Of a stretch of 64,000 bases of DNA, positions 50,198 to 51,702 are shown one piece after another. Under the pieces are notes generated by a model, which saw nothing but the letters and a program-made list of their open reading frames with translations, was not told the DNA's origin and did no database searches. Position 1 is the stretch's first letter. Each line of letters opens with the position of its first letter. The translations under genes were made by a program, and so were the position numbers. Source of the DNA: an uncultured Clostridia bacterium. GTDB lineage: Bacteria; Bacillota; Clostridia; TANB77; CAG-508. The DNA is taken from the NCBI GenBank assembly GCA_947426305.1, contig CANEDP010000005.1, positions 26,404 to 90,403 of the forward strand. The letters are read 5' to 3'.

Positions 50198-50220
50198 TGG
50201 TCAGGTTTAGTTACTATAAT

Positions 50221-50392
50221 TAAAAACAAAGGTTAACAAGTTTCAAAAGTCTCCTCTGACCGAAGGAGATACGTGCAATATTTGCACAAAATACATATCA
50301 TATTATATCATATTTACATAAAAAAGTCAAGAGGCTGGGGACGTTATTTTTTAGGAAAGAATGAAAAATAAAAAGCACCCGAAGGTGCTAAT
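50221..50392 (-). repeat. cassette repeat copy 1: minus-strand terminator, promoter (TTGACT-17-TATAAT) and conserved ~75-nt leader, with no ORF downstream
   Basis: Read on the minus strand: -35 at 50325-50330, -10 at 50302-50307. Leader hairpins are gtgcaatatttgcac and tctcct-ctgaccga-aggaga. The terminator hairpin gcacccgaaggtgc is at 50375-50388. Confidence 0.7.
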
Positions 50393-50394
50393 GG

Positions 50395-50859
50395 TCAGAA
50401 ATTATTGTTTTTTGATGTTTCAATGTAACTGTTAACTGATTTGCAGTCATCGCTCACTGTAATGTCAGTGCCTGTTGAAAGAGAGATAATAGTTCCTGTC
50501 TCTGACAGATCATCCCTAAAAGGATTGTGCTTTAAGTATGTTTTCTCAAAGGAAACAATTCCATCAAGAGTGATGGTCATTTTCACTGACTTTGTATAGG
50601 TAGTTGTAGAAGGAAACGTCACAACTTTGTTTACTTCGATAAAGCGTATGCAATTTTTCTTTCCAATTTGCCGACGAAGGAAATTATATTCATCAGCAAT
50701 GGGAAATGACTTTCCTGTGGATAGTGTTATAATAGAAGAGTCATTTGAAGACTTTTCCAATGCAACAATATGCTTCAAGTTAACAGTTACTTTTTGGGTT
50801 TTTAACTCCGATTTAGAAGATTCAGGAGTTGTAATTTTGTTTACTACAATAGTATCCAT
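50395..50859 (-). CDS. hypothetical protein with an internal tandem duplication of a ~75-aa domain (paralog A)
   Basis: The two halves align (VNLKHIVALEKSS ... IITLSTGKSF versus TGTIISLSTGTDITV). It has its own promoter/leader copy upstream and its own terminator. Contains an in-frame CGT-CGG pair (plus-strand CCG 50671-50673) read as Arg-Arg. Confidence 0.65.
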   Translation of the reverse strand: MDTIVVNKITTPESSKSELKTQKVTVNLKHIVALEKSSNDSSIITLSTGKSFPIADEYNFLRRQIGKKNCIRFIEVNKVVTFPSTTTYTKSVKMTITLDGIVSFEKTYLKHNPFRDDLSETGTIISLSTGTDITVSDDCKSVNSYIETSKNNNF

Positions 50860-50883
50860 AAATTCATCCTTTCTTAAATAAAA

Positions 50884-51046
50884 GTGTAGGGTTAATTAGT
50901 TTCAAAAGTCTCCCCTGACCAAAGGAGATATTGTACGAAATCCGTGCGAATACATATATTATACCATATTTACATAAAATTGTCAAGAGACTAGAGACGT
51001 TATTTTTTAGGAAAGAATGAAAAAAAAAGGCACCAAAAGGTGCCGT
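50884..51046 (-). repeat. cassette repeat copy 2: terminator of paralog B, promoter (TTGACA-17-TATAAT) and conserved leader of paralog A
   Basis: About 80% identical to copy 1. Terminator hairpin ggcaccaaaaggtgcc. Confidence 0.7.
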
Positions 51047-51054
51047 GGTCAGAT

Positions 51055-51537
51055 TTAGCAGTGCTCACGAATCCAATCGTAATCTTCTGCTACATAAATT
51101 TTTTCGCCGTTATGCAGTGTAATTTCTGTTAAGTAATCTCCAATCGTGCAGTTGGGATAGAGATTAACTATATGATTTTTTACGGTTGTGTTATTCAAAG
51201 CCATATTGGAAGCTCTTATTAGTGCGATGTAGTCTAAATTAAGCAAAATAGGCTGATATGGAGTCTTAGAATCTAGTGGTGCAAATGCAACATGAAATTC
51301 TTTTAACATAAACTGGTCACGAATCCAATCATAATCCTCTGCCACATCAATGATTTCGCCGTTGAACATTGTAAGTGTTGTTAAGTGATCTCCAATCATA
51401 AAGTCGGGTTTGAAATCACATTTGCAATAACTAACATTTGAAGATGTTGCTTGTACAATGTAGTCTAAATTAAGCAAAATAGGCTGATATGGATTTTTAG
51501 ATTCTAGTGGTGTAAGAACGTGAAATTCTTTTAACAT
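51055..51537 (-). CDS. hypothetical protein with an internal tandem duplication (two ~80-aa halves, MLKEFHV ... PYQPILLNLDYI ... NGE.I.VAEDYDWIR; paralog B)
   Basis: The two halves are ~60% identical to each other and share the paralog-A domain pattern (L.NLDYI ... TL..G ... AEDY..IR). Confidence 0.65.
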   Translation of the reverse strand: MLKEFHVLTPLESKNPYQPILLNLDYIVQATSSNVSYCKCDFKPDFMIGDHLTTLTMFNGEIIDVAEDYDWIRDQFMLKEFHVAFAPLDSKTPYQPILLNLDYIALIRASNMALNNTTVKNHIVNLYPNCTIGDYLTEITLHNGEKIYVAEDYDWIREHC

Positions 51538-51555
51538 AAAAACGATTCCTTTCTT

Positions 51556-51702
51556 TATTAAAACAAAGGTTTACAAGTTCCAAAATATCTCCTCCTGACC
51601 AAAGGAGATTTGTGCAATTTTCACACAAAAAATATATACTATTATATCATATTTACATAAAAAAGTCAAGAAGCTGGGAGCGTTATTTGTGCTATCTCCA
51701 AA
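51556..51702 (-). repeat. cassette repeat copy 3: promoter (TTGACT-17-TATAAT) and conserved leader of paralog B
   Basis: Read on the minus strand: -35 at 51664-51669, -10 at 51641-51646. It lacks the terminator module. Confidence 0.7.

Follow-up and report, generated by a model that had tools for sequence, protein, structure and literature searches.

Why should one and the same promoter and leader stand three times in the gap between tuf and pyrC of an uncultured Clostridia bacterium? The gap, 1.65 kb long and read on the minus strand, lies in a 64,000-nucleotide stretch of contig CANEDP010000005.1 (positions 26,404 to 90,403; "the window" below always means this whole 64-kb stretch). Repeat finding, three-way alignment and a scan for promoters and terminators place a module there three times on the minus strand. 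The mean column identity of the three-way alignment is 78%, close to the 80% that the initial annotation of this DNA had given for a triplicated promoter-leader-terminator module, the repeat families D1 (73 nt; 100/90/68% identity) and D3 (94 nt; 86%) were recovered, and a covariance model of the leader run over the window finds exactly the three module sites, with E-values from 1e-14 to 3e-18. Copy 3 precedes paralog B (51537-51055, 160 aa) and copy 2 precedes paralog A (50859-50395, 154 aa), as had been recognized; copy 1, beside tuf, had been credited with no such peculiarity but is gene-less, has no Shine-Dalgarno sequence (SD) and runs directly into the tuf terminator. We propose that these are three self-contained monocistronic cassettes in tandem, read convergently towards tuf, in which an extended -10 sigma-A promoter is followed by a two-hairpin leader, a strong SD, a small open reading frame (ORF), an 8-nt box YCUGACCA and an intrinsic terminator, the loop of which is often UUCG. 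The box is complementary to the loop of the second leader hairpin, and judged from the sequences the cassette is a candidate for a new contact between the 5' and 3' untranslated regions (UTRs) of a bacterial mRNA, narrowly distributed and with a plausible mechanism. To our knowledge, no more than a few bacterial mRNAs, hbs and icaR among them, have a functional 5'-3' UTR contact, and each is a one-off. Here the same short complementary pair and the same covarying hairpins are reused on many ORFs in about a dozen genomes, so that nature has supplied the replicates for asking whether, and in what way, contacts between the two ends control the fate of mRNAs in Firmicutes.

Leader hairpins, 3' box and promoter

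The leader is a 5' UTR of about 95 nt. In nearly every copy the same two hairpins emerge from single-sequence folding, most of the z-scores lying in the range of -2 to -4. The first, H1, has the form GUGC(N)..(N)GCAC and lies a few nucleotides from the predicted 5' end (an estimated 1-9 nt, the transcription start site being itself predicted). The second, H2, has the form AUCU(C/A)CU..(A/G)G(G/U)AGAU and displays GGUCA(G). The covariance model, termed R1, found 23 distinct leaders in the collected material, which comes from about a dozen related uncultured Clostridia. Over these 23 leaders 89.9% of the cells are paired and nine of the 12 base pairs are altered on both sides. Not one of 500 shuffles matched the observed H1/H2 pairing, the result was the same on 19 sequences, and pairing falls to 31-62% when the 3' partner is slid along. 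The alignment was fitted to the structure, which favours pairing; the compensations are plain in the raw sequences. In H1, GUGC/GCAC has become GCAC/GUGC or GUGUG/CACAC, and in H2 the pairs C-G, U-A and A-U have been replaced by A-U, G-C and C-G, respectively, at three positions. Because such changes would destroy a sequence-specific DNA operator, the comparison argues that H1 and H2 are RNA structures under constraint at the RNA level. The 23 copies are not independent, since the sequence set comes from one narrow clade whose tuf 3' ends are 91-96% identical.

The two hairpins had been noticed in the initial annotation, together with a guess at shared cis-regulation at the RNA level and the suggestion to look for folding and covariation in homologous leaders. 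The hairpins are borne out by 23 copies, both of them do covary, and the guess has gained in strength accordingly with them. The search for known families that had been recommended as well returned no match of the leaders in Rfam 15 even at E<=10, the best nearby matches falling on terminator hairpins, while our own model retrieves the 23 leaders. On this sequence evidence the leader is an RNA element new to Rfam and of narrow distribution. No conserved upstream ORF is present in the leader, the ATGs of which differ between copies. Over the whole window, Rfam yields zero families at the gathering score, despite the presence of ribosomal-protein and pyr genes, at which leaders are common in other Firmicutes.

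The second element is the box. On the coding strand it reads YCUGACC(A). All 23 distinct cassettes possess it irrespective of their ORF; relative to the stop codon its position is -2 to +31 nt, and 1-4 nt separate it from the terminator stem that follows. Where the gene has been frameshifted (locus L009), it stands at the end of the original frame. The box pairs with the H2 loop UGGUCAG(R) through 6-8 contiguous base pairs in 21 of the 23 cassettes. A loop variant, GGUUAG (cassette L006b), still pairs with it by a G.U wobble, and the flanking eighth position is paired in 16 of 21 cassettes by A-U, G-C and U-A types. Five of the seven CTGACCA/TGGTCAG sites on either strand of the window fall inside this 1.5-kb locus, and TGGTCAG on the plus strand occurs at 50198, 50392 and 51046, one site per cassette. 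The motif had been reported before at two sites and interpreted as a mark of unit boundaries that hinted at a duplicative or cassette-like origin. It is real and repeated, but there are three sites (the first at 50198, not 50207), and instead of a mere duplication scar it constitutes a conserved 3'-UTR box complementary to the H2 loop. This complementarity, like the anatomy of the cassettes, their conservation across genomes and the covariation of the stems, can be computed directly from the sequences. Loop-box duplex energies amount to -11 to -13 kcal/mol. In partition-function folds of 19 full predicted mRNAs the loop-box helix reaches a probability of at least 0.4 in 12 and of at least 0.95 in seven, and in the predicted 132-nt RNA of cassette 1 it is about 0.75. 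By these computations the contact is predicted to be thermodynamically feasible.

Each copy carries a promoter with TTGACA or TTGACT, a 17-nt spacer and TG-n-TATAAT, which the promoter scan scores at 11-12 of 12 consensus positions; the near-consensus sigma-A promoters described earlier thus hold, with a TG extension of the -10 element in addition. Four occurrences of the 22-nt promoter core were counted in the window, where 0.02 would be expected. The fourth occurrence (TTGACA-aagTTATGTAAATATGGTATAAT) lies at 44914-44942 (+) before an ORF at 45017-45393 (or from 44989), which encodes an unrelated protein of 125-134 aa just upstream of rpsL and has a different leader without H1 and H2. Because this copy drives an unrelated ORF with a different leader, the core suggests a promoter type or operator employed beyond the cassettes. 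The same promoter spacer was also seen in two other metagenome-assembled genomes (MAGs; L004:4522-4591, -, and L008:2923-2991, +), where it is followed by a different two-hairpin leader (GAAGCAC..GUGACUUC, then UUGGAGGUCAG..CCUCCAA) upstream of a gene of 254-259 aa; there is no CUGACC box after this gene.

A proposed contact between mRNA ends and its rivals

How could these elements work together? In the mechanism that we propose, the strong sigma-A promoter would fire, H1 and the SD-bound ribosome would shield the 5' end of the mRNA, the H2 loop would kiss the box beside the terminator, and the joined ends would modulate the access of RNase Y/J and of 3'-exonucleases, and possibly translation, as in hbs. 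We infer that the promoters are transcribed, that the contact forms in vivo and that it affects decay or translation. The chances that contact between the 5' loop and the 3' box sets the lifetime and/or the translation of these monocistronic mRNAs seem to us about even. A bolder version is rather unlikely: that the portable promoter, two-hairpin leader and 3' box form a new modular class of "closed-loop" mRNA for diversifying ring-forming SwrD-like proteins, with the ORF-less copy titrating the contact in trans. The cassette also hints at a compact and apparently strong promoter-leader-terminator expression module for gut Clostridia.

The closest known arrangement is that of the Bacillus subtilis hbs mRNA (Braun, Durand & Condon 2017, PMC5737220). 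There a 14-nt segment of the 5' UTR just after the hairpin hp2 pairs just upstream of the terminator, and this pairing modulates cleavage by RNase Y and keeps it in check. As in hbs, the cassettes combine a small monocistronic Firmicute gene, a strong SD, a two-hairpin 5' UTR and a 5'-UTR segment at or near hairpin 2 that is complementary to the sequence immediately upstream of an intrinsic terminator. Unlike in hbs, the predicted contact comprises 7-8 bp instead of 14 bp and its 5' partner sits in a hairpin loop (a kissing geometry), whereas that of hbs is single-stranded after hp2; there is no sequence homology, and the cassette arrangement is a reusable module on several different tandem ORFs. 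Ruiz de los Mozos and co-workers reportedly described in 2013 how a 3'-UTR motif of the Staphylococcus aureus icaR mRNA base-pairs with the transcript's own 5' UTR and governs expression; the motif is said to mask the SD and to trigger RNase III cleavage. In the cassettes, by contrast, the H2 loop takes the part of the 5' partner and precedes the SD by about 45 nt. Short and presumably abundant mRNAs that combine a strong SD with a hairpin near the 5' end also recall the stem-loop/SD stabilisers of Bacillus mRNAs such as the aprE, ermC and cryIIIA leaders (reviewed in PMC3997798), with the difference that here the distance between H1 and the 5' end derives from a predicted start site and a stabilising role would be by analogy.

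Several observations weigh against control through the loop-box contact. The computed probability of the helix depends on the assumed transcript ends (0.9 versus 0.41 for A of the window), and in nested models the contact competes with H2 itself. With 7-8 bp the helix is short beside the 14 bp of hbs. Loop and box are almost invariant, so that covariation between them is minimal, and part of the conservation of the box in orthologous A-type cassettes may be coding, because it overlaps the last codon and the stop codon there. H1, H2, the loop and the box stand out from a leader that overall drifts about like third codon positions (63-75% versus 60-81% identity among orthologous A cassettes); the claim that the leader is more conserved than neutral sites was not supported on these cassettes. 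An ambiguous case is provided by the P0006 cassette, which exists in two haplotypes with identical 462-nt ORFs (L013 3361-3945 versus L014 2933-3520; also L016 and L020-L027). Only five differences separate the transcripts: the H1 remnant and the H2 loop contain two each, the box one. A G>A change in the loop is linked to a C>U change in the box in 12 of 12 contigs, by position a replacement of G-C by A-U. This linked change, otherwise unexplained, is suggestive of a loop-box contact. The duplex energies do not support energetic compensation (-9.3 versus -6.5 kcal/mol, with -6.8 and -6.4 kcal/mol for the hybrids), and the pair sits in a lineage with a degenerate leader in which H1 has been lost; selection, gene conversion and decay are all possible causes of the clustered differences.

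Other explanations account for part of the same evidence. A trans-acting factor, be it an RNA-binding protein, possibly a ring-forming cassette protein, or a small RNA, might bind the H2 loop GGUCAG and co-regulate all cassettes; in that case the 3' box would serve either as a decoy or as another, independent site, and the RNA of cassette 1 as a sponge or trans regulator. We regard this as unlikely, though deserving of some weight: the loop is nearly invariant while its stem covaries, as is typical of a recognised loop, cassette 1, identical in the sister MAG, has kept promoter, hairpins and box although it contains no ORF, and SwrD, to which the cassette proteins show some resemblance (see below), forms hexameric rings structurally like the nucleic-acid binders RemA, ComK and LytTR (PMC13232269). 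Yet SwrD is without the DNA-binding motifs of these structural relatives (PMC13232269), the leader is also found before ORFs in which nothing SwrD-like is detectable (one of 55 aa and those of the 84-aa MKVIFTDG type), no factor has emerged as a candidate, and the exact complementarity of box to loop would be left unexplained. The same box is unaccounted for if control is mainly transcriptional, with a DNA-binding regulator on the upstream element, the spacer TTTTATGTAAATATG and/or the H1 palindrome and with the leader structure as a secondary matter. That conservation runs from about -60 through the spacer, that H1 of copy 1 is a perfect 6-3-6 inverted repeat and that the promoter core is shared by the unrelated gene without this leader (44914-44942, +) and by the L004/L008 genes with another leader would all suit such a regulator; H1 and H2, however, alter their sequence and stay paired, and the GUGC to GCAC flip would destroy an operator, which makes this explanation quite improbable.

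A slim chance is left for recent tandem duplication and gene conversion, with hairpins, loop and box devoid of any function of their own. The modules within the genome are 86-90% identical while A and B are only marginally similar, and decay is common (ORFs of L001, L009 and L006a; the SD of L038; H1 of L013 and L049), but compensatory changes in both stems recur across species that are 25-40% divergent in the leader, and loop and box are kept in 21-23 of 23 cassettes whose flanks have otherwise diverged. A riboswitch, a transcription attenuator or an RNA thermometer, based on H2 and a U-stretch or on a third hairpin, H3, that hides the SD, is very unlikely. H2 of copy 3 was flagged as terminator-like, the only one to be so; H2 as the terminator of an attenuator was rejected because the U-tract that follows it is not conserved (UUUU, UUUCAG, UAUUAG and others). 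In most copies, minimum free energy (MFE) folding does form a helix between the SD and a CCUU upstream of it, but H3 is no better than in shuffled controls and has been dropped: the SD is paired with a probability of about 0.75 against about 0.6 after shuffling, every cassette is matched or beaten by at least six of 100 shuffles, and none stands out at the 5% level. The leader matches nothing in Rfam at E<=10 and offers few conserved unpaired nucleotides for a ligand pocket. A PyrR site (in view of the neighbouring pyrC), a T-box-like UGGN/NCCA pairing and GGA loops for CsrA were considered likewise; the motifs misfit or vanish in variants, and Rfam gives no match. It would be most surprising, finally, if TGGTCAG/CTGACCA were DNA inverted repeats for site-specific recombination of the integron or shufflon kind. 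The inverted 7-mer does flank each ORF, array content differs among related genomes, one cassette is empty, and a weak Y1-transposase-like gene lies beside the L038 array. At 7-8 bp, however, the repeats fall short of what known invertases or integrases require; no recombinase gene is found near the array in the window, none of about 25 cassettes is inverted, and the stem of H2, which encloses the 5' copy, shows RNA covariation.

Should the contact between loop and box prove non-functional, the locus would still be a documented, conserved, tuf-linked hot spot for small genes.

The cassette proteins

Paralogs A and B, both taken from the ORF list, consist of two copies each of a domain of 70-85 aa. 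The internal duplication had been seen in the initial annotation and is confirmed by DNA repeats and half-half comparisons: the internal repeats of paralog B (D2, D4 and D7) are 79-96% identical as DNA and its protein halves about 60% identical, while for paralog A the comparison of one half with the other gives E=3e-8. Between A and B there is only marginal likeness (E=0.002 over 21 aa). Orthologues of A were collected as P0003-P0008.

The best match in Pfam is FlbD (PF06289), with 23.5 bits for A and 24.1 bits for B, under the gathering score of 24.7 bits; on single domains, two of eight match at E<1. Weak PHROGs matches fell on small phage families, one of which carries the annotation flagellar protein. 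Profile hidden Markov models of the four half-domains of the window, searched against 1.84 billion representative proteins, returned nine matches at E<1e-3, one of which is a false positive, and no bona fide FlbD among them. PADLOC and NCBIfam gave no meaningful matches to the cassette proteins, and a sequence-profile search of the Protein Data Bank (PDB) returned nothing.

Structure prediction was more informative. The full-length AlphaFold2 (AF2) model of paralog A is unusable, with a predicted local distance difference test (pLDDT) score of 41.5; its N-terminal half, modelled from a 15-sequence alignment, reaches 80.8. This model has strands at residues 3-11 and 20-27, a helical turn at 28-30, strands at 31-37, 41-46 and 51-54 and a helix at 58-69. 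Crystal structures of SwrD are described as beta1-beta2, a 3-10 turn, beta3-5 and a C-terminal helix (PMC13232269), and the order of elements agrees. The motif N-x3-(I/L)-x3-E of the SwrD 3-10 turn and beta3 is recognizable in the N-terminal half of A (N27-LKH-I31-VAL-E35), and B has N-LDY-I. A Foldseek search of the PDB gave only insignificant PH-like and LytTR matches. Against predicted viral structures (BFVD) there are eight matches at E<1e-3 with template modelling (TM) scores of 0.7-0.8, and N4 gp27 as well as proteins bearing the annotation "Flagellar and Swarming motility protein" figure in the wider list.

According to the model, then, A and B have a SwrD/FlbD-like fold, and they are probably distant homologues of SwrD/FlbD whose membership stays below the Pfam threshold. 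The initial annotation had been unable to assign them to a family; fold and, in part, motif now place them near SwrD/FlbD. The likeness comprises the order of elements, the N-x3-(I/L)-x3-E motif in A-type domains, the weak Pfam match and the FlbD-like Foldseek matches. Unlike SwrD/FlbD, the cassette proteins have two fused domains with variable beta3-beta4 inserts, all A and B domains lack the Pro-Asp-Thr loop motif when read from the sequence, and only about nine clusters exist in the 1.84 billion representatives. A flagellar operon context is also missing, the genes lying between tuf and pyrC here and beside likewise non-flagellar flanks in other genomes. Small phage proteins (phage N4 gp27; phrog_7594, phrog_25340 and phrog_8458) are similar in fold (TM 0.7-0.8, E 1e-4 to 1e-3) and give weak profile matches, but no phage context turned up for the array, the viral scan being empty and PADLOC without matches. 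The cassette proteins form a tiny, lineage-specific, fast-evolving family, a branch of the poorly understood SwrD/FlbD fold outside the flagellar context.

Distribution and map of the cassettes

Only two relatives of paralog B were found in an index of 5.8 billion proteins. Their contigs carry the same promoter and leader, one in a sister MAG (L001), the other in a more distant genome (L003), where promoter and leader precede two different ORFs and again lie beside tuf. A scan of 185,579 species-representative genomes for the promoter plus GGTCAG gave seven loci, four with a true module (L005, L006, L009 and L010), all in uncultured Clostridium or Eubacteriales MAGs, one locus each, at the tuf 3' end; divergent relatives would be missed because the scan demanded both elements. 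A match in Dorea (L007) is due to chance, as are L011 and L012, the sole yield of a scan of Joint Genome Institute (JGI) metagenomes, and a scan of viral contigs for the module was empty. Further contigs were found via homologues of paralog A and of other cassette proteins. The leaders stem from four GTDB species representatives and many metagenome contigs, and nearly all of them abut the tuf 3' end; two contexts, L028/L029 and L046, are not directly beside tuf.

The comparison of copy number across related genomes that had been suggested earlier reveals arrays of one to three cassettes with a gene content that varies by genome, and the cassette-like, duplicative character proposed for the locus is borne out. 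The arrays encode tandem proteins of the A type, proteins of the B type with one domain or two in tandem, a "MKVIFTDG" protein of 82-85 aa and other products of 55-103 aa. Some cassettes are decaying: paralog B is frameshifted in L001 (5001-5357; sister MAG GCA_949878445.1), the L009 ORF likewise (about 1410-1120, -), the A-type ORF of L006a (L006 320-737) is cut by a premature stop, the leader of L038 (2914-3003) is without an SD, and H1 is lost in L013 and L049. On the side away from tuf the arrays are flanked by pyrC, plsX, type I restriction-modification (R-M) genes or a pseudouridine synthase gene. R-M flanks were seen in L006/L028-L037 (HsdM) and L013-L016 (a T1R fragment), and L038 has a weak Y1_Tnp match at 2145-2660. 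R-M genes or fragments or a weak transposase-like gene in several flanks suggest a variable hot spot downstream of tuf. In L028/L029 (2558-3316), what follows the two-cassette array is not tuf but two tiny ORFs of 50 and 57 aa and a gene of HTH_26 type; the tuf junction seems to have undergone an insertion or a rearrangement.

In the window, fusA (46712-48796) and tuf (48918-50147) are read on the plus strand and pyrC lies further downstream of tuf. Cassette 3, the first to be read on the minus strand, begins with a promoter at 51641-51690, made up of the upstream element AAATAACGCTCCCAGCTTC, the -35 box TTGACT (51669-51664), the spacer TTTTTTATGTAAATATG and the -10 box TATAAT (51646-51641); promoter scan and alignment of the copies give 11 of 12 consensus positions with the TG extension. 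Its leader (51538-51635) scores 92.6 bits in the covariance model (E=3e-18) and is backed by the MFE fold and by covariation. H1 (51626-51612) reads GUGUG..UGCAC, H2 (51609-51587) reads AUCUCCU..AGGAGAU with the loop GGUCAG at 51600-51595, and the SD AAAGAAAGGA occupies 51556-51547. Paralog B is followed by the box UCUGACCA (51046-51053), the complement of the H2 loop UGGUCAGG with a predicted duplex energy of -11.8 kcal/mol, and by the terminator GGCACCUUUUGGUGCC with a U-run (51020-51044).

Cassette 2 has its promoter at 50958-51008, with an upstream element, TTGACA at 50986-50981 and TATAAT at 50963-50958 (12 of 12 positions). The leader spans 50860-50955 (86.8 bits; fold and covariation) and contains H1 at 50947-50933, H2 at 50929-50908 with the loop GGUCAG at 50920-50915 and, after them, the SD, all on the minus strand. 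Here the box UCUGACCA (50392-50399) overlaps the TGA stop codon of paralog A (predicted duplex energy -12.9 kcal/mol), and the terminator AGCACCUUCGGGUGCU with its U-run extends over 50364-50389. For both genes the terminator scan made strong calls, at 51044-51029 and 50389-50374, in agreement with the terminators that had been proposed.

Cassette 1, also on the minus strand, possesses a promoter at 50302-50352 with an upstream element, TTGACT at 50330-50325 and TATAAT at 50307-50302 (11 of 12 positions). The leader at 50206-50296 (77.6 bits) holds H1 at 50287-50273 and H2 at 50270-50249, with the loop GGUCAG at 50261-50256, and no ORF or ribosome-binding site follows. The box CCUGACCA stands at 50198-50205; CCTGACCA and the terminator common to tuf come about 45 nt past the second hairpin. 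This terminator hairpin, recognized by sequence and fold at 50166-50195 with A-run and U-run flanks, serves tuf (+) and cassette 1 (-). Deletion of the ORF from the final cassette of the array is the probable origin of cassette 1: the CTGACCAAC-to-tuf-terminator junction recurs in L006b, where an ORF is retained, and AATTAA repeats lie at both edges of the presumed deletion. If transcribed, cassette 1 would give an RNA of about 130 nt with loop and box.

At the other end of the array, the longest pyrC ORF (51612-53099, +) starts with GTG, encodes 495 aa and reaches about 65 codons beyond the likely true start, MSNILLKNG at about 51806. The over-long version overlaps the promoter and leader of cassette 3 on the opposite strand; a gene call of 470 aa in L001 is affected likewise.

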